The position numbers and the translations under genes were made by a program. A stretch of 64,000 nt of DNA from an uncultured Candidatus Saccharibacteria bacterium. Its GTDB lineage: Bacteria > Patescibacteriota > CAZHWT01. The stretch is from assembly GCA_964554805.1 (NCBI GenBank), contig CAZKPX010000002.1, positions 178,080 through 242,079 on the forward strand, read 5' to 3'. Positions 25,404 through 62,904 of the stretch are shown here, piece by piece. The notes under the pieces were generated by a model. It did not search any database, was not told the origin of the DNA, and saw only the letters and a list, made by a program, of their open reading frames with translations. Position 1 is the stretch's first letter; each line of letters begins with the position of its first letter.

Positions 25404-26699
25404 CTATGTCTGTGGATCGTCGTGCAATTGCTCTATGCGACTAGTGATTTTGCCTTGATAGAGTTGAATATTAATTGTATCACCTGTTGCTAATTGGTGT
25501 ACGTTGCATACAACCTGGCCTTGGTGAGTTACCATGCTATATCCTCGGGCCAAGACATTGTGCGGGCTGACTGATTGGAGCTGCTTATCAAGAGCCGATA
25601 GTTTGACGGCAACCATTCTTGGAATCTGATTAACGGCTTGCAAGCTTTGTCGCAGTTGGTCTAAGCGGGATTGATTGTGAAGAGATAGCCTTTGTCCGCT
25701 GGAGGCTAATTGTTGATGAAGATGATCCAATCGAACAGGCAAACTCCTGTAGCTATGTTGAACTTGACTGAGAGAACCAAGTAAGTGGTCGAGTTGTTGA
25801 TAGTAGGAGCTGGTTTGATATCTATACAGATTGGCGATCTTTTGTTTGAGGTGGTGCAGTTCTAGCTGAGCGTCCTCGTAATTGCGAGTAATGATTTGGC
25901 CAGCATTGGTGGGGGTAGATGCTCGAACATCGGCGACCAGATCAGCTATTGAGATGTCTTTCTCATGGCCGACTGCCACCAGGGTTGGAATGGGACTGCC
26001 GGCAATGGCTCGAACGACCGCTTCATCATTAAAGGCTGCGAGGTCCTCTGCGCTGCCTCCGCCGCGAGTTATGACGATTGCTTCAATATCACGCTGCTGC
26101 AATGATTTAAGAGCTTTTAGGATGCTTGCAGGGGCTTGCGGACCCTGTACGTAGGTATCTGCGACTGTTAATTCGATTAGGGGGAACTTGTCGATCGTGT
26201 GTCGTTGAAAATCTGCCCAGGCATCACTAACGATTGAGGTGACAACACCTATCCGTTGCGGAAAGTTGGGTAATTGACGCTTCTTGTCTTGATCAAGCAG
26301 GCCCTCCTTTTGTAATTGTAGCTTCAGTTTCTCTAGCTGAGCGGCCAAGGCGCCGGCACCCACTGCTTCAATTTTGTTGACCACAAATTGATATGACCCA
26401 GATTTGGTAAACAGACTCAGCTTACCGAAAGCAAGAATCTTTTGACCATTAACCAGCTCGGCGCCAATATACGGATAGTTTTGCCGAATCACTACGGCTG
26501 GTAGAGAAAAATCGCCGCCGGTGTCTTTTAGGGTGAAGTATAGGTAGTAATAGCGACCATGCGCCCCTTTAAACTCACTGACTTCAGCCTCTACCCACAC
26601 CGACAATGTTTCGAGCATATCTTTAGCCAGACTGTTTAGCTGACCTATGGAAAAGACCTGGCGGTCTGATGAAGAGCTGTCTTGGAACAATTGAGGCAT
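25404..26699 (-). CDS. xseA: Exodeoxyribonuclease VII large subunit
   Basis: An N-terminal OB fold and the ExoVII catalytic domain (ITRGGGSAEDLAAFNDE) are present. The extended -10 TGTTATACT ends 6 nt before the ATG. Confidence 0.9.
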   Translation of the reverse strand: MPQLFQDSSSSDRQVFSIGQLNSLAKDMLETLSVWVEAEVSEFKGAHGRYYYLYFTLKDTGGDFSLPAVVIRQNYPYIGAELVNGQKILAFGKLSLFTKSGSYQFVVNKIEAVGAGALAAQLEKLKLQLQKEGLLDQDKKRQLPNFPQRIGVVTSIVSDAWADFQRHTIDKFPLIELTVADTYVQGPQAPASILKALKSLQQRDIEAIVITRGGGSAEDLAAFNDEAVVRAIAGSPIPTLVAVGHEKDISIADLVADVRASTPTNAGQIITRNYEDAQLELHHLKQKIANLYRYQTSSYYQQLDHLLGSLSQVQHSYRSLPVRLDHLHQQLASSGQRLSLHNQSRLDQLRQSLQAVNQIPRMVAVKLSALDKQLQSVSPHNVLARGYSMVTHQGQVVCNVHQLATGDTINIQLYQGKITSRIEQLHDDPQT

Positions 26700-28226: not shown

Positions 28227-29195
28227 CTAATTGGAAAAGACTTGAGTAAAAATAATACCGTAGCGGGGGTCTTTGTAGGCGCCGATACCGACCTTGTTGT
28301 ACTTAGGATCGAGGATATTACGCTTATGGCCTGGGCTATTCATCAAACCAGTGTGAGCCATATCGACGGTTGGGGCCAGCGCCAGATTTTCTCCAGCGGC
28401 CAGATATTGGATATTAGCTGCTTCAATTCTATCGAATGGATCGAGGCCTTCAGGGGAATAGTGAGAGAAATAGCCGCGCTTAAACATATCTAAGCTGTGA
28501 GCTCGTCCAACCTGCCGCAAGTCGGTGGCGAGAACAAGCTCGTTTAAACCCTGCTTCGCTCGCTCTTGATTTAAAAGTTTGAGCATCTGCTGCTCGTCGG
28601 GCAGACTAATAAATGCGGAATCGGACGAGAAATTGAGGGTAACAATCTCTTTTGAATCAGGCTCTATGGTAAATAGCTGAGACAATTCATTGATAGCCGG
28701 TGTGACCAGCTTCTGAACAGGTGACCCAAGCTGCTCAAGGCCGTCTATTAGCGGCCGAGCCAACACGGCCTGGGTAACGGCTACTTTCATTGGGTGCTCG
28801 ATAGGCAAAGACGAGAAGATAGACGTCATATATGCCACAGTAATGAGACCGTTGGCTAGTCCGAGACCAGCTGCAAACCAGCTTGGGTGGGTTACACTAC
28901 GGAGTCTTGGGCCCATTTTCTTGCTCAGTAGCAGAATACTGCCGGTTATGAGGGTATCGATAACAAAGGCAAGTAATAGAAAGGCAAAAATATTGAGCAG
29001 ACTAGGAGGTATTGGCCAGATATTGCTTAGCCATGATGCTACTGGAGCATAGAAGGCATAGGCTGCCAGCAGTGAAACAATTAGTCCCAACAAATTTGCT
29101 GAAGCGGCTAAAAGACCGACCTTATAGCCTCTCCATAGGCAAAATGATAGGAATACGACAATCAGCAAATCAACTAATAATGACCATTGAGACAT
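28227..29195 (-). CDS. CvpA-family membrane domain fused to a C-terminal CAP/SCP domain
   Basis: The N-terminal roughly 150 aa is a four-TM CvpA-like region (MSQWSLLVDLLIVVFLSFCLWRGYKVG...). The C-terminus is a CAP domain (HSLDMFKRGYFSHYSPEG...GENLALAP...MNSPGHKRNILDPKYNKVGIG). Confidence 0.7.
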   Translation of the reverse strand: MSQWSLLVDLLIVVFLSFCLWRGYKVGLLAASANLLGLIVSLLAAYAFYAPVASWLSNIWPIPPSLLNIFAFLLLAFVIDTLITGSILLLSKKMGPRLRSVTHPSWFAAGLGLANGLITVAYMTSIFSSLPIEHPMKVAVTQAVLARPLIDGLEQLGSPVQKLVTPAINELSQLFTIEPDSKEIVTLNFSSDSAFISLPDEQQMLKLLNQERAKQGLNELVLATDLRQVGRAHSLDMFKRGYFSHYSPEGLDPFDRIEAANIQYLAAGENLALAPTVDMAHTGLMNSPGHKRNILDPKYNKVGIGAYKDPRYGIIFTQVFSN

Positions 29196-36459: not shown

Positions 36460-37293
36460 ATGCCACTTTTGATGTCAGGCCAGCCTGTTGCACAGCATAT
36501 ATATAGCCAAATCGAGAAGCGCCTAGACTCTTTGCAGCAAGCACCTACTTTGGCTATTTTGCAAGTTGGCGATGTAGCTGCCTCAACAATTTACGTCAAG
36601 AAAAAGCTAGCGGCTGCCAAGCGCATAGGCATCGCGACTATATTTGAACATTTGCCCGCCACTGCTTCTCAAGATGAAGTCTTGTCAATTATCTCCCAAT
36701 GGAACACTGATGCTACGGTTACGGCTATACTCATTCAGCTACCCCTTCCCCAATCCCTTGCCAGCCAATCAATTATATCTAGCATTTTGCCAAGTAAGGA
36801 TGTAGATGGACTTCACCCTCTCAATGTAGGCTTATTGGTGTCAGGCCAACCGAATATCATTCCTGCCACTGCCAAAGGCGTAATGCGCATGCTAGATTAC
36901 TACACTATTGGCTTAGAGTCTAAAAGAGTTTTGGTAATTGGCAGGAGCTCATTGGTCGGTAAGCCTACTGCCATGCTTCTCCTTCAACGAAATGCTACCG
37001 TCACAATGGCTCATAGCCAAACTGCCAACTTATCCGAGTTGCTATCTAAGGCTGATGTAATCATCAGCGCAGCAGGCAAGCCGTTTCTTATCAAACCTGA
37101 GCAGGTATCTCCTAAGAGTGTTATAGTTGATGTGAGCATCAGTCGTTTACCGCAGGGTATTGTCGGTGATGCCGATTTGATTAGGCAGACAGCCTCGGTC
37201 GAGGCTATTTCCCCAGTACCAGGCGGAATCGGACCGTTAACTATCGCTTGTCTGCTGGAAAATGTACTCGACTGCTACGACTTACAACATTAG
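36460..37293 (+). CDS. folD: Bifunctional methylenetetrahydrofolate dehydrogenase/cyclohydrolase
   Basis: It has THF_DHG_CYH N- and C-domains (VILVGD-like LQVGDVAASTIYVKKK; GRSSLVGKP). The extended -10 TGCTACACT ends 6 nt before the ATG, suggesting a leaderless gene. Confidence 0.9.
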   Translation: MPLLMSGQPVAQHIYSQIEKRLDSLQQAPTLAILQVGDVAASTIYVKKKLAAAKRIGIATIFEHLPATASQDEVLSIISQWNTDATVTAILIQLPLPQSLASQSIISSILPSKDVDGLHPLNVGLLVSGQPNIIPATAKGVMRMLDYYTIGLESKRVLVIGRSSLVGKPTAMLLLQRNATVTMAHSQTANLSELLSKADVIISAAGKPFLIKPEQVSPKSVIVDVSISRLPQGIVGDADLIRQTASVEAISPVPGGIGPLTIACLLENVLDCYDLQH

Positions 37294-57315: not shown

Positions 57316-59148
57316 CTACATTGTTTTTTCATTATTGCGAGAATGTTTTTTGACTACTTCAATAAAACGAGGTCCGTATTTGTCCAGTTTTTGCTGGCCG
57401 ACGCCGTATATCTTAGAAAAGTCATCTAGGGCGGTGGGACGCTGAATGGCCATGTCGGTTAGGCTAGTGTCGGCGAAAATGATGTAGGGTGGCATCGCTT
57501 CTTCGGCGGCAATTTGCTTGCGGAGTTGTCGCAGAGCTTCGAATAGTTCCTGATCAACATCTTGCTGGTTATGGGCGGCAGCTGATGGGCCGGTTTTGAA
57601 TCTGGCTGGCTTAACTTTGGCTTTTTGGGGCAGGAATAAGTCTGACAGCTCGACTAGGCGCTGACCCTTTAAAACAGCTAGCCCATCTTGAGTCAGACTG
57701 ACACCGTTATAATTGTTGAGATCAATAGTGACATACCCCTGTTCTGATAATTCTAACAAGACTTGCCGCAGTTGAGTTTCTTTGTAATCTGCGATGATAC
57801 CGAAGACTGATAGTTGATTGTGCTGTCTGCGTTCAATCTGTTCATCGCTTTTGCCGGTGAGAATTTTGGTTATATAGGTCGGAGAGTATGGTCGACCAAG
57901 ACGATATACACATGACAGTACCTTTTGAGTCAAGACTGTAGCGTCGAAGGTTTGGCGAGGAGTTAAGCAGTTATCGCAAGAGGAGCAGGATTGGTTAAGG
58001 CTTTGTTCGCTAAAATATTCAAGCAACTGGTGATGCCTGCAGACAGACGACATGGCAAATCGCTGAACTTGACCTAGTTTCAAATTAGCCTGATCTTGTT
58101 CGGCGGGTGGGAGGCTTTGATTAAATTGACGGTATAATTGCAAGTCGCCGGAACTAAAATACATGACACATTGACTCGGTTGACCGTCTCGACCAGCCCG
58201 TCCTGATTCTTGGTAATAGTGCTCCAGGCTGCGAGGAGCACTTTCATGGAGTACAAAGCGAACATTAGATTTGTCGATGCCCATGCCAAAGGCCACCGTG
58301 GCAGTAATGATTTGGACTTCGTCATTTTTGAACTGTTCCTGATGACTGGCTCTGTCTTCATCCGATAAACCAGCATGATAAGTGGCGGCCTTGACGCCAT
58401 GTTCTTGCAAGAAGCTGGCTAATTTTTCGACATTGCTGCGTGACTGGCAATAAATGATTCCAGCCTCGCCTGGCCGCTCGAGAACATATTGAAGAATACT
58501 ATCTTTGACTTGCTGCTTGGGCTGCACCGAATATGTCAGATTGGGGCGAAAGAAACTTGAGACCAGCACTTGCGGTTGTCGAAGACTGAGCTGTGTCACA
58601 ATATCAGCCTTAACTCTGTCGGTGGCGGTGGCGGTCAACGCCATGATTGGCTTGGGGGCGAATTGCTGTCGAATCATTGATAGCTGCCGATATTCGGTGC
58701 GGAAGTCATGGCCCCATTGAGAGATACAATGAGCTTCGTCGATGGCAAAGAAATTGATATTGAGTTGACTTAGTAGATTGAGGAAGTGAGGCTGGACTAA
58801 TCGCTCTGGTGCGATATAGAGCATTGATATGTCACCGCGCAGAACTTGGTTGATGATGTCTTGTTGAGTTTGGTCATCGAGACTGCTATTGAGATAGGCG
58901 GCGGAGATCCCGTTATGACGCAGGGCATCAACCTGGTCTTTCATCAGCGAGATGAGCGGTGATATAACGATGGTAACACCGGGCATAACGACGCTGGGAA
59001 TGGAGTAGCACAGCGACTTGCCGCCACCGGTTGGCATGAGGACAAAGACATCCTGGCCGTCCAAAACTGCCTCGACTGCCTGCTGTTGATTTTGGCGAAA
59101 TGATTCAAAGCCAAAGTACTGTTTTAAAACTATCTCACTTGGTCTCAT
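57316..59148 (-). CDS. recQ: ATP-dependent DNA helicase RecQ
   Basis: DEAH helicase motifs (MPTGGGKSLCY, DEAHCISQWGHDFR), an RQC zinc/winged-helix region and a C-terminal HRDC domain. An AGGAGA SD lies upstream. Confidence 0.9.
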   Translation of the reverse strand: MRPSEIVLKQYFGFESFRQNQQQAVEAVLDGQDVFVLMPTGGGKSLCYSIPSVVMPGVTIVISPLISLMKDQVDALRHNGISAAYLNSSLDDQTQQDIINQVLRGDISMLYIAPERLVQPHFLNLLSQLNINFFAIDEAHCISQWGHDFRTEYRQLSMIRQQFAPKPIMALTATATDRVKADIVTQLSLRQPQVLVSSFFRPNLTYSVQPKQQVKDSILQYVLERPGEAGIIYCQSRSNVEKLASFLQEHGVKAATYHAGLSDEDRASHQEQFKNDEVQIITATVAFGMGIDKSNVRFVLHESAPRSLEHYYQESGRAGRDGQPSQCVMYFSSGDLQLYRQFNQSLPPAEQDQANLKLGQVQRFAMSSVCRHHQLLEYFSEQSLNQSCSSCDNCLTPRQTFDATVLTQKVLSCVYRLGRPYSPTYITKILTGKSDEQIERRQHNQLSVFGIIADYKETQLRQVLLELSEQGYVTIDLNNYNGVSLTQDGLAVLKGQRLVELSDLFLPQKAKVKPARFKTGPSAAAHNQQDVDQELFEALRQLRKQIAAEEAMPPYIIFADTSLTDMAIQRPTALDDFSKIYGVGQQKLDKYGPRFIEVVKKHSRNNEKTM

Positions 59149-59718
59149 GCAATACTATCTCCTAGAAACGGATTGTATCACAGCTTGAACTATGTGCACA
59201 GTTACTTACTATATTCTCATCGCGACTTTTTATCATTTCATGAGAAACTCCCACCTACTAGAGATAGGTGGGAGCGGTGTTGACTTAGAGCCAGGGGTTT
59301 ATATTTGTATCACAGTAACTGCAGTGATGTGCACCTGGGCGAGCAGCCGAATGGTGGCAGCCGTCTGTCTTACATTTTTGAGGCGAAGAAAGTATGACTA
59401 TGTCAGTTATCTTAGCTAATGAATTGTGTCTCAATTCTTTCCAGCAACTGTCTTGACTATCAAACCATCTATGAAGGACGACAATGCTTTGATTACAAAC
59501 GAGATTAGGTGTTTTTGCCACAGGCAAAACCTTTCACGAATGGCACTAGCCACAAAAATACACTACCAGACTTATCTCTAGCATCTGATCGAATGAGTAT
59601 ATCATACTGTATCAACTTTAGATTACTAATTAACCGCCATTGTCTTAATCGGTTTTGTTGGTTGTGACATATTAAAGGACAACTTTACTGACTGTGTATT
59701 ACTTGCTACACTCAATTA

Positions 59719-60513
59719 ATGTCATTTGAAGCAAGGTTTGCGCCTGAATCTGATAGCTACAATGAAATAACTACTCCATCGCCGAAAGAGCGCGACTTGC
59801 TCGAGCGCGAGCGCAGCTATGGTTCCCACTATCAAGGTGGTGTAAACGAGGTTATTTATGTTGATCTCATTGATGATGGTTGTGCTATGTTTAAGCCTGC
59901 CGATGGAGAAAACCAAACGAAAGTATTTCCTGAATTAAAAGCTGGCACTTACTATAAACGTGAGCGAGCAGCATATTTGGTTGATAGATTTCTTGACCTT
60001 GGCTTAGTTCCGCCAACAGTCATAAGAGAGATGGATGGTAGCGTGGGTAGCATGCAGGAGTTCATACCAGACGCCCAAACTCCAAGAAGTATGGATGCAG
60101 ATGAGTGGCAATCTCTTGATTTCGAAAGCGACGCATTCCAAAAGATGTGGCTACTGGACTATATCATTCATAATGCCGACCGCAATATGGGTAACTATCT
60201 GATCAAAGATGGCGGAGAAACCGTCAAGGCTATTGATCATGGTTTTTGCTTTGCAAATTATCCTCTATTTACCATATTTGATTTTTCTGGATATAAGTTA
60301 AACGATAGTCTGCTCGATAATTTTCGCTCTTTGGCCAATGATACTATTCGTCGGGAAATCTTGGTTGATTTATTAAAAGAGCTGCTGAGCGAAGAAGAAG
60401 TTTCTGCCTGTTTGGCTAGATTGGATCACTTATGCGAGATGGCTGAGGCTGGCAATGTTGATGGTTCTGAGTTTAACTACTATGGTAATGCAAGACAGGA
60501 GGCAGCCGAATGA
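59719..60513 (+). CDS. PI3/PI4-kinase family protein, type II phosphatidylinositol 4-kinase-like (eukaryote-type atypical kinase)
   Basis: From memory of PI4KIIalpha, ordered blocks align: GGVNEVIYV...AMFKP (cf. GGSSGSYFV...AVFKP), ERAAYLVDRFLDLGLVPPT (cf. EAGASLVDQKLELNIVPRT), the catalytic loop LLDYIIHNADRNMGNYLIKD (cf. [20 protein letters not shown]), and the DFG-equivalent AIDHGFCF (cf. AIDNGLAFP). The extended -10 TGCTACACT ends 6 nt before the ATG. Confidence 0.65.
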   Translation: MSFEARFAPESDSYNEITTPSPKERDLLERERSYGSHYQGGVNEVIYVDLIDDGCAMFKPADGENQTKVFPELKAGTYYKRERAAYLVDRFLDLGLVPPTVIREMDGSVGSMQEFIPDAQTPRSMDADEWQSLDFESDAFQKMWLLDYIIHNADRNMGNYLIKDGGETVKAIDHGFCFANYPLFTIFDFSGYKLNDSLLDNFRSLANDTIRREILVDLLKELLSEEEVSACLARLDHLCEMAEAGNVDGSEFNYYGNARQEAAE

Positions 60514-60764
60514 GAGCGATCATTTATAAAACTACCAATGACGGACAGCAAGAAGTGTTGGTTCAGGTGAGTTTGTCGACTGATGGAAAAGTCCTTATAG
60601 ATGGTGATGAGATCATGGCTCGAAATTTGGAGAATGAAGGAGTCCGCAACTATGAAGATGTGACCCAGCCAATTGTCTACCCTATCGATGGGGAAATATT
60701 CTTAAGACAACTGCCATTTAATTTCCGCAGCGGCTATTTGATGGCTGAGCTTTTAGAAGATTAA
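60510..60764 (+). CDS. Hypothetical 84-aa protein translationally coupled to the kinase-like gene
   Basis: ATGA start/stop overlap with the upstream gene. No recognised motif. Confidence 0.5.
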   Translation: MRAIIYKTTNDGQQEVLVQVSLSTDGKVLIDGDEIMARNLENEGVRNYEDVTQPIVYPIDGEIFLRQLPFNFRSGYLMAELLED

Positions 60765-60765
60765 G

Positions 60766-60999
60766 CTAATCTTGATTGCTTTTTACCCTAATCAGTTCGA
60801 GCTGCAGTTGAATATAACCGAGCGAGATGACTACTACGCCGGCGATTATTTTGAGAGCGGGCCAGCCGAAGGTTTGATTGGTAAAGAATGATAGTACATA
60901 TTGAATTACGCCGACGGCAAGCAAGACCGCACCGATAAGAATTACCGTGATGGCTACGGCTAAGAAGTTTTTGGATGAGGAGCGGGAGAAAATAGTCAT
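60766..60999 (-). CDS. Hypothetical two-TM small membrane protein (77 aa)
   Basis: Two hydrophobic helices. An AGGAG lies 12 nt upstream. Confidence 0.4.
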   Translation of the reverse strand: MTIFSRSSSKNFLAVAITVILIGAVLLAVGVIQYVLSFFTNQTFGWPALKIIAGVVVISLGYIQLQLELIRVKSNQD

Positions 61000-61103
61000 A
61001 TTAACAGTATGCTCCTGATGCTGAGATAAATATAGCTTGAGGATATGAGAAGGGCCTCAATAATGAGGCCCGGAGATTTTGTTTGGCTGGACTTGGCCAG
61101 CAT

Positions 61104-61574
61104 TTAGTCCATTTGGCGCTGCCGATAGTGTTGATACAGAAAGATGGCCTTCTTGTCAGCGACATTGCCTCTCTGATCTAGGCTCCAAGCCAACTTGGCA
61201 TAACAATCACGTTTGCCTGCCTCGGCACCTTTCGGACCTGTTTTGAGCCATTCCTGATATGCCCGTTTGGCGGCCTTTTTATTGATTTTGAGAAACTTGT
61301 TGTTCTCCCAAAAGGCTTTCCACCATCGGCGCTCATTCCTCCACACTAGCAAGGACATCAACAAGCTGAATATGCATGTCAGCCCTATGAATCCTGGCCA
61401 CAGACTGCGTAAGGTTGGATCGAGCACATACAATTCATACTGCTCCAGCAGTATAAGAACAATGCTGAGCAGGCCTATGCCCCAACATATGCCCAAAGCG
61501 CAGACGTCCCAATACTTTATAGAAGCATCTGGGTAAGGACGATATTCCGGTTCGGTCGCGTATTGCTTAGCCAT
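61104..61574 (-). CDS. Hypothetical membrane protein (156 aa)
   Basis: A strong SD (AAGGAGAAGATC then ATG) is embedded in the 3' end of the upstream gene, suggesting an operon. Two TM helices and a basic C-terminal tail. Confidence 0.5.
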   Translation of the reverse strand: MAKQYATEPEYRPYPDASIKYWDVCALGICWGIGLLSIVLILLEQYELYVLDPTLRSLWPGFIGLTCIFSLLMSLLVWRNERRWWKAFWENNKFLKINKKAAKRAYQEWLKTGPKGAEAGKRDCYAKLAWSLDQRGNVADKKAIFLYQHYRQRQMD

Positions 61575-61590
61575 GATCTTCTCCTTGCGG

Positions 61591-62142
61591 TCACAGCCCG
61601 TCGTATTCTTCTGCGGGTATGCCCAAACGAAATCCGACCGATATGGCGACAGGGCTGGAGTTTAGTCTAGCGCCGTGCTCCTCCCACTGGACAAAGATCT
61701 TTCCCTGATAGATCTTATCGAGGAATAGACCTTCCAAGTCCTTAAGGTCTTCATCTCGCAGACACTCCAGAATCCGAAGGAGGACTTTGGCCAAGGCTTT
61801 CTGAAGCTGTGCTTCAGTGAACCTGTAATCCCGCTGATACTCATCTTCTGGAACGTTAATGCAGGCACCAAAAGACATGCCGGCCACACTTTTGTCCCAG
61901 TTGAGGACCCGCCCAACCACAACTTGTGATTTTTGGGGCTGGAGCACGCCAAGCGCTAAGTAGTACAGATCTTCACGCGTAGCAGAGCTGGAAATGGCCT
62001 GAGATATCTCTTCAATAATCCAGGATAGCTGATCGTTCGAGCCAAGCTGCCACTGCCCAGATGTTCTGGTCTCGTCCACTCGCCTCAGGTTCGGTTCTGC
62101 AGGCGTGCCTGCTAGTCGCCGCCTCTTGGTCTCACCTACCAA
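61591..62142 (-). CDS. Hypothetical protein (183 aa; TTG start with SD)
   Basis: AGAGGAGAG lies 7 nt upstream of the TTG. No recognised domain. Confidence 0.45.
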   Translation of the reverse strand: MVGETKRRRLAGTPAEPNLRRVDETRTSGQWQLGSNDQLSWIIEEISQAISSSATREDLYYLALGVLQPQKSQVVVGRVLNWDKSVAGMSFGACINVPEDEYQRDYRFTEAQLQKALAKVLLRILECLRDEDLKDLEGLFLDKIYQGKIFVQWEEHGARLNSSPVAISVGFRLGIPAEEYDGL

Positions 62143-62305
62143 TGGGTCACTCTCCTCTTTAGTCGATGGGTCGATGGCGGTACTATATCATATCTTTAAT
62201 AATTTATGTTAATTGAAGATGCTACGAAAACACGGCTTGTATTAAATTGTATTAGTGATATAGTAAATCTCTGAGAGAGGTTGTTTGTTTAGGAAGGATG
62301 AGGCA

Positions 62306-62743
62306 ATGAGCAGTCCGAGTCAGTGGCAGTTGGACTATGTATTGCTGCCAAAGGGATCTATAGAAACGCTGATTAGGTTGAAAGTTGCCCAGCGCAAGCA
62401 TGCCTATGCGAAGTTTGTGGGCGCAGTGCCCGAAACTGACATCGATGAGGCTGCCTTGTTAATCACTTGCCTTGAAGACAAGTGGATATCTCAGCTTGAT
62501 GGCGATATGTTTGCCGCTGTGGTTGTTTTCACTCAAGACCAAGCGGACATTGAGTTTGAGACGGAACTGACATATGAGGAGCTGGATTGGGAGCATGAAC
62601 CATGCCAATCCTTCTCTGATCTGTCGCTGCTGGTCGAAGATATCGGTATGGAAGCCATTGCAGAACGGTCGTTGGATAACTGGGGCCATTGGGCCGATCA
62701 GCCTGGACTGTTGCCAGCTGCCATTGAAGAAATAGTAACCTGA
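62306..62743 (+). CDS. Hypothetical acidic protein (146 aa from the ATG at 62306)
   Basis: An AAGGA SD lies 7 nt upstream of the ATG. The ORF-track start at 62285 is a TTG inside the SD region. Confidence 0.5.
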   Translation: MSSPSQWQLDYVLLPKGSIETLIRLKVAQRKHAYAKFVGAVPETDIDEAALLITCLEDKWISQLDGDMFAAVVVFTQDQADIEFETELTYEELDWEHEPCQSFSDLSLLVEDIGMEAIAERSLDNWGHWADQPGLLPAAIEEIVT

Positions 62744-62786: not shown

Positions 62787-62804
62787 ATGATGAGCGCATA
62801 TGTG

Positions 62805-62845
62805 ATTGGATTGGATTGGATTGGATTGGATTGGATTGGATTGGA
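62805..62845. repeat. Pentanucleotide microsatellite (ATTGG)x8
   Basis: Eight perfect tandem ATTGG units immediately 3' of the terminator, in a convergent intergenic region. Confidence 0.9.
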
Positions 62846-62904
62846 TATCACATTTTACGATTGACGTTTGAAGAAGCTGTTTAATAACACTTTAAGCACC
62901 TCTC

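Follow-up and report, generated by a model that had tools for sequence, protein, structure and literature searches.

In the hipJS and hipIN modules, a kinase gene is followed by a HipS-like gene (PMC8262856), and HipS inhibits the kinase HipT by direct insertion near the Gly-rich loop (PMC10627512). In temperate phages, the gene of a MuF protein with a C-terminal toxin typically precedes a small immunity open reading frame (ORF), and the study describing these toxins lists no kinase cargo (Jamet et al. 2017; PMC5576092). A third known family, SCO1664 (TIGR03843), has been described as a signature protein of actinobacteria whose gene always accompanies mshC (PMC4255298). Here, we describe a two-gene module that shares features with each of these, located in a 64,000-nucleotide stretch (hereafter the window) of contig CAZKPX010000002.1 (assembly GCA_964554805.1) from an uncultured Candidatus Saccharibacteria bacterium. 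Its first gene (59719..60513, forward strand) encodes a minimal atypical kinase of 264 amino acids (aa) resembling the type II phosphatidylinositol (PI) 4-kinases (PI4KII) and FAM20, and its second (60510..60764, forward strand) encodes an 84-aa protein from a conserved family with an alpha/beta fold. We tentatively propose that the kinase is gated by this small partner, which would be tightly bound to it as an inhibitor or a pseudosubstrate.

The module resembles HipT/HipS (as in HipBST, hipJS, and hipIN) in combining a small kinase with an adjacent, separate protein of ~100 aa, but its kinase lies nearer to PI4KII and FAM20 than to HipA, with the Pfam HipA_2 model matching only at E 0.17, under threshold. 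With the MuF toxins it shares a small ORF directly 3' of the cargo gene: the 84-aa ORF overlaps the kinase stop codon, and two phage loci show the same arrangement. A further likeness is that a relative of the kinase forms the C-terminus of a Phage_Mu_F protein whose gene follows a portal gene. Unlike these toxins, however, the window gene is stand-alone and chromosomal, lies beside recQ, and lacks a MuF or any other delivery domain.

The kinase and its family

The Pfam model PF00454 (PI3_PI4_kinase) matches residues 109-225 of the kinase at 39.1 bits, against a gathering cut-off of 27.1. Searched singly against the PDB, the window sequence matched PI4K2B weakly (E 0.005), over the catalytic loop. 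A profile built from 40 family sequences recovered PI4K2B at 4e-16, PI4K2A at 1e-14, and FAM20A/C at 3.5e-12 to 1e-9, while Vps34 (0.016) and PI4KIIIβ (about 0.1) trailed far behind. By profile and by fold, the closest solved structures are thus PI4KIIα and PI4KIIβ; fold comparison of the AF2 model (predicted local distance difference test, pLDDT, 89.9; predicted template modeling score, pTM, 0.89) places FAM20, CtkA, and HipA-type protein kinases nearly as close. The likeness to PI4K2A/PI4K2B is concentrated in the blocks FKPK (with the Lys), E-x-x-A-Y/S-LVD...VP-T, GS-Q-F, LDYII-N-DR-x-x-N-L, and IDNG/IDHG, and the Lys/Asp/Asp catalytic residues are kept. Across the 40 homologs, K59, E82, R83, D147, R155, and D173 are invariant, and N152, D154, and N159 are conserved in at least 90%. 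These include the ATP-binding Lys (K59, codon 59893-59895), the catalytic loop D154-R155...N159 (D154 codon 60178-60180), and the metal-binding Asp (D173, codon 60235-60237). Since these residues are conserved throughout the set, the enzyme looks active, and its sequence points to a catalytically intact atypical kinase whose closest solved relatives are the type II PI4-kinases. The initial annotation had proposed such a kinase, naming a HipA- or aminoglycoside-phosphotransferase-type placement, or unconserved catalytic Asp residues, as what would overturn it. Neither was seen, and the PI4KII-like assignment is correct for the fold and the catalytic core; the two catalytic Asp residues, numbered there as D153 and D174, are D154 and D173.

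The assignment does not extend to full membership of the eukaryotic family. The window kinase falls ~100 residues short of the PI4KII catalytic domain and lacks the CC motif/CCPCC palmitoylation insert that anchors these enzymes to membranes (it has four Cys in total), as well as other membrane-binding features. It is acidic and soluble, without any hydrophobic segment (maximum KD19 1.14), and neither it nor its partner carries a signal peptide or membrane segment. The region C-terminal to the metal-binding Asp is poorly conserved within the family. Bacterial, cytoplasmic, and accompanied by a small partner gene, the enzyme differs from PI4KII in each of these respects, and lipid activity is putative. 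The kinase is not a FAM20 member either: PF06702 (Fam20C) gives no match at E<=1, so that the similarity lies at the profile and fold level, and the signal peptide and disulfide-rich secretory features of FAM20 are absent, the partner moreover being a small non-kinase. Nor is it a member of the families defined by the HipA_C/HipA-like Pfam models.

The top curated bacterial match is the NCBIfam model TIGR03843 (SCO1664 family), at 96.7 bits (E 1.4e-27), which does not reach the cut-off of 172.4, whereas a Chloroflexia member scores 278.1. The two share a minimal core of about 235-265 aa, but SCO1664 proteins lack an 85-aa partner. The window kinase is surrounded by recQ, its partner, and genes for hypothetical proteins rather than by mshC, and no MSMEG_4193-type phosphatase is encoded in the window. 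In Arthrobacter (A. humicola locus L036, 5121-6594; see also L038, 5854-6648), the SCO1664-type kinase directly follows a TIGR03848 histidine-phosphatase gene of the MSMEG_4193 family, a gene order that suggests a kinase/phosphatase pair in this sister clade. The window kinase is outside TIGR03843 and belongs to a CPR-type clade (CPR, candidate phyla radiation) sister to the SCO1664 family.

Our searches recovered 499 homologous clusters at E<=1e-3, and a pattern scan restricted to one genome per species yielded 218 confirmed loci. The best 80 of these 218 loci come from Patescibacteria (Staskawicz-, Davies-, Azam-, Sung-, Harrison-, Woese-, and Zambryskibacteria, Saccharibacteria, and Minisyncoccia), Chloroflexota, and many Actinomycetota such as Arthrobacter. 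Some homologs, in Yanofskybacteria and Harrisonbacteria, already bear the UniProt label "PI3K/PI4K catalytic domain-containing protein". The view that this family is essentially eukaryotic and rare in bacteria, from which the initial annotation had started, is contradicted by these numbers and by the existence of a curated bacterial family, TIGR03843. Plasmids gave five weak actinobacterial matches and nothing further, and curated GenBank phages gave no match for kinase or partner. Three metagenome-assembled genomes (MAGs) labeled 'uncultured Gammaproteobacteria' (L007, L010, and L027) also carry the CPR-type kinase-partner module, which may reflect mis-binning, mislabeling, or horizontal transfer.

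Within its own lineage, the kinase appears sporadic. The window TypA is 62-65% identical to homologs from Patescibacteria, Berkelbacteria, Andersenbacteria, and Chloroflexota and 75-94% identical to metagenomic relatives, and by these similarities the window belongs to a sparsely sampled CPR-like lineage. As the best non-self kinase homolog reaches only 46% identity although TypA relatives at 75-94% are present in the same database, the comparison suggests an accessory, patchily distributed gene, the contigs of the relatives ending before the recQ side is reached. That the neighbors of the module differ between genomes also makes an accessory role, as opposed to a core one, plausible. Of the accessory signaling, effector, or defense module originally suggested, the accessory part thus remains plausible, while the lack of any signal peptide or membrane segment speaks against secretion.

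The small partner protein

The partner start codon (ATG, 60510-60512) overlaps the kinase stop codon (TGA, 60511-60513) in an ATGA arrangement, and a strong Shine-Dalgarno (SD) sequence, AGGAGG, identified by inspection and by an SD scan, lies 7 nt 5' of it on the forward strand, within the 3' end of the kinase gene (60497-60502). The coupling had been noted from the start, the SD sequence had been missed, and the description of the 84-aa product as unknown does not hold, as the product belongs to a conserved family. Using phmmer on the ORFs of related loci, we detected 84-89-aa homologs (E 1e-8 to 1e-17) in 22 loci, with the partner starting between -16 and +20 nt relative to the kinase end. 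A profile search returned the identical 22 loci at E 1e-26 to 1e-37, corresponding to 22 of the 27 CPR-type loci, and found no partner homolog in the Actinomycetota or Chloroflexota loci. The proposed survey of homologs for partner conservation thus gave a positive answer. In the reverse direction, 1.8 billion representatives were searched in full with HMMER, which recovered ~50 clusters of small partner homologs, and three of three homologs picked from this independent list lie directly 3' of a kinase homolog. An earlier word-indexed search had returned the partner query alone, a sensitivity artifact overturned by the phmmer, HMMER, and profile searches; the partner has dozens of relatives at 30-47% identity, and word-indexed negatives for proteins this short are not proof of orphan status.

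The two proteins are also inherited together, as pairwise identities of kinases and partners co-vary across loci (Mantel r 0.62, p 5e-4). No other neighbor of the module is conserved, and those that recur are housekeeping genes (PNPase and RNase III, for example). Judged from this strict two-way linkage and co-inheritance, the 84-aa protein is a conserved, obligate partner family of the kinase. Kinase-partner fusions were absent among 123 kinase homologs, and the longer homologs carry N-terminal extensions without a Pfam domain. One locus (L090, 1064-1615) encodes a tandem-duplicated partner (P0264) of 183 aa with two units, directly after a 353-aa kinase homolog.

The partner has no sequence match in Pfam, NCBIfam, PHROG, PADLOC, or the PDB. 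In its very confident AF2 model (pLDDT 97), three β-strands lead into a helix; a short pair of strands and two short helices come next, and one more strand closes the fold. All family members keep G44 and Y76 (Y76 in 48 of 48), a Ser or Thr occupies position 74 in 47 of 48, and V3, G61, F64, L65, L68, and A79 are conserved in at least 90%. The family carries the motif FPxDGxxFL...FxSGYLxA. Matches within proteins of more than 1000 aa fell in WD40 or other β-propeller repeats and were treated as generic β-hairpin similarity. A relationship to HipS is kept as a weak lead only, as the Pfam Couple_hipA model matched none of the 48 members and Foldseek against the PDB returned nothing significant.

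Phage-borne relatives and the role of the module

Relatives of the kinase occur as parts of large proteins in viral contigs. In one IMG/VR contig (IMGVR_UViG_3300037067_011471; L087, 4026-5651), a 541-aa protein joins a Phage_Mu_F domain to a C-terminal PI4KII-like kinase, and its gene lies between a portal gene and genes for an XkdF protease and capsid proteins. Another (L086) encodes a 581-aa kinase protein and, in a gene that overlaps the end of the kinase gene by 4 nt, a true partner homolog (hhalign probability 97.9%, E 6e-13); a Mu-F protein is encoded nearby. A third locus (L095, 4098-7649) encodes two proteins in tandem, one of 533 and one of 571 aa, both with a C-terminal kinase domain, followed by a single overlapping partner. 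In two further IMG/VR loci (L096, 3390-5771; L097, 51-5648), the kinase domain ends proteins of 793 and 1865 aa. A stand-alone 237-aa kinase in another locus (L085) is followed by a 72-aa ORF (795-1013) whose N-terminus resembles the β-hairpin region of the partner; it lacks the C-terminal FPxDG...SGYL motif, was missed by the partner profile, and may be a divergent or analogous partner. Among candidate defense systems, the PADLOC kinases PDC-M03/PDC-M66 weakly match 29-30 of the 40 family members, with E-values reaching 1e-7; the window kinase itself matches PDC-M66A at E 7.8e-4 over the catalytic loop alone, and neither the partner nor the window neighbors have a PADLOC match. Together, the phage cargo versions and the PADLOC matches provide independent support for a conflict-type role.

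The module is a self-contained two-gene cassette whose mRNA most likely starts, without a leader, from an extended -10 element, with the partner translated from its own strong SD sequence within the end of the kinase gene. Under the explanation we favor, the partner would bind the kinase directly and gate it, either as a neutralizing subunit of the antitoxin or immunity kind or as a pseudosubstrate. Docking could proceed through its invariant F-x-[S/T]-G-Y-L-x-A segment, and the kinase would phosphorylate its target, probably a protein, only once freed from the partner. Such a mechanism would follow the logic known from HipT/HipS and toxin-immunity cassettes. Direct contact between the two proteins, the inhibition of one by the other, and the kind of substrate used are points that we infer. 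The order of a large enzyme gene followed by a small overlapping ORF, and neighbors that vary by genome, argue for such gating, which we consider plausible while granting it less than even odds.

Several observations weigh against it. No HipB-type HTH (helix-turn-helix) gene lies near the window module, unlike in HipT/HipS systems. The chromosomal copies sit among housekeeping genes, PNPase and RNase III included, and not in obvious islands or prophages, and the MuF-kinase fusion of L087 has no partner gene. Conservation is higher in the partner than in the kinase (mean identity 48% vs 34%), which is atypical for an antitoxin or immunity protein and better fits a shared substrate or cofactor. 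One Azambacteria MAG (MEYT01) carries two modules (L009, 5836-6991; L020, 6-1056) whose kinases are 52% and whose partners are 94% identical; the near-identical partners could stem from a function common to both, from gene conversion, or from a bin of mixed strains.

These conservation patterns lead to a close rival, namely a physiological two-protein phospho-module serving ordinary regulation, in which the partner would be a dedicated phospho-acceptor (through S/T74 or Y76) or would activate the kinase or serve as its adaptor, much as FAM20A does for FAM20C. The greater conservation of the partner and the near-identical partners beside diverged kinases in one genome would be expected of such a module, as would the invariant or near-invariant hydroxyl residues in F-x-[S/T]-G-Y-L. 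The strong SD sequence suggests that the partner is produced in excess, the chromosomal neighbors are housekeeping genes, and the pairing of SCO1664-clade kinases with a TIGR03848 histidine-phosphatase gene suggests a reversible phosphorylation cycle in this superfamily. However, the sporadic distribution, with no close ortholog in relatives of the lineage, sits poorly with ordinary regulation. The same holds for the use of the phage kinase as C-terminal cargo of MuF and giant proteins, which is more typical of injected effectors or toxins, and for the weak matches to kinases of candidate defense systems. We regard this alternative as possible but somewhat unlikely.

Both of these explanations are more likely than the two that follow. 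An improbable one is a small-molecule kinase acting on a metabolite of the sugar or inositol type, akin to SCO1664, with the small protein as an accessory or carrier subunit. In its favor, TIGR03843 is the best curated match, SCO1664 is linked to mshC (mycothiol, an inositol conjugate; PMC4255298) and to a gene of the phosphomutase/phosphatase family, and the structural clade includes PI4KII, which acts on a lipid, and FAM20B, which acts on xylose. Yet the score of the window kinase falls far under the TIGR03843 cut-off, no Actinomycetota or Chloroflexota locus carries the partner, the window encodes no phosphatase and the operon no metabolic genes, and the phage cargo architecture fits ill. 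Least probable, and in our view highly unlikely, is a eukaryote-type PI 4-kinase that would have been acquired from eukaryotes, or would target them or host membranes, as a secreted lipid-kinase effector: PI4KIIα and PI4KIIβ are the closest solved structures, the catalytic residues are intact, and CPR bacteria live attached to host cells, but those hosts are prokaryotes, mostly without PI, the family occurs broadly in bacteria as well as in phages, the signal peptide, membrane segment, and CCPCC insert are missing, FAM20, CtkA, and HipA-type kinases are nearly as close structurally, and the region past the metal-binding Asp is poorly conserved.

Taking gating by the partner a step further, the kinase and its ~85-aa partner might constitute an undescribed toxin- or effector-neutralizer family common to the chromosomes of CPR bacteria (Patescibacteria) and to the phages of these bacteria, where the kinase would be injected as MuF or large-protein cargo, and the minimal bacterial kinase might represent the prokaryotic stock of the eukaryotic type II PI4K and FAM20 folds. 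We offer this combined proposal with considerable reservation.

Expression signals, chromosomal setting, and implications

The kinase gene shows no SD-like motif 5' of its ATG, and an in-frame TGA at 59689 excludes a start further upstream. An extended -10 promoter-like element, TGCTACACT (59704-59712, forward strand; putative), ends 6 nt 5' of this ATG, and a scan with the sigma-70 consensus found no full -35/-10 promoter for the gene. To place this arrangement in context, we considered the 47 non-overlapping ORFs of at least 150 aa in the window. Nine of the 47, clpB included, have a TANNNT ending exactly 6 nt 5' of the start codon, often with a preceding TG (TGnTAnnnT), against 33 of 2175 (1.5%) among all ATGs in the window (Fisher p 1.2e-8), and an SD-like motif is found at just 15 of the 47. 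Examples are the starts at 1084(+), 5074(+), 16720(-), and 23836(-, clpB), and further genes with the pattern are 25404..26699(-), 28227..29195(-), and that starting at 36460(+). Because the pattern recurs across the genome, we read the element as an extended -10 promoter, and the kinase mRNA is most likely leaderless, transcribed from this element abutting the start codon. The leaderless start originally proposed thus stands, although not as a special feature of this gene, being the house style of the genome.

The module is separated from recQ (57316..59148, reverse strand; DEAD, Helicase_C, RQC, and HRDC domains) by a divergent intergenic region of 570 bp (59149-59718; GC about 0.41-0.43) with no Rfam match at E<=1 and no supported ORF, in agreement with its initial description as non-coding. 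On its 3' side (60766-62743) follow genes for a 77-aa protein with two transmembrane segments and a weak DUF308-like match, a 156-aa membrane protein, and proteins of 183 and 152 aa without a family match, and then a DUF2130 gene. The reported block of hypothetical genes is accordingly borne out by the lack of family assignments, with DUF2130 as the one exception. All four proteins (77, 156, 183, and 152 aa) are also encoded in the Logan contig L001, and nothing indicates that they are part of the kinase module. A perfect pentanucleotide repeat, (GATTG) x 8.6, which could be a slippage-prone tract, occupies positions 62804-62846 in the gap separating the convergent 152-aa ORF from the DUF2130 gene. 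The window is otherwise ordinary chromosome, encoding ClpB, Lon, a PEP-utilising enzyme, phosphoglucomutase, PBP1, TypA, an ABC transporter, and RecQ, and contains no tRNA or Rfam features. It also has no HIP1 sites, which speaks against an origin in cyanobacteria.

The kinase superfamily itself is already known, and databases annotate its members automatically. Three of its features appear undescribed in the literature we searched: an ~85-aa family genetically locked to a PI4KII-like kinase, the use of this kinase domain as C-terminal cargo of MuF head proteins and other large phage proteins, and the wide occurrence of a compact (~260 aa) PI4KII/FAM20 fold in CPR bacteria, Chloroflexota, and Actinomycetota. 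Both proteins are small, soluble, and confidently predicted, which should make either outcome easy to test. If the partner is a neutralizer, the pair would represent a new kinase-based conflict module in a group known almost wholly from genomes; if it is a substrate, the pair would be a new minimal phospho-switch. In addition, the pair bears on the bacterial ancestry of the type II PI4K and FAM20 kinases.

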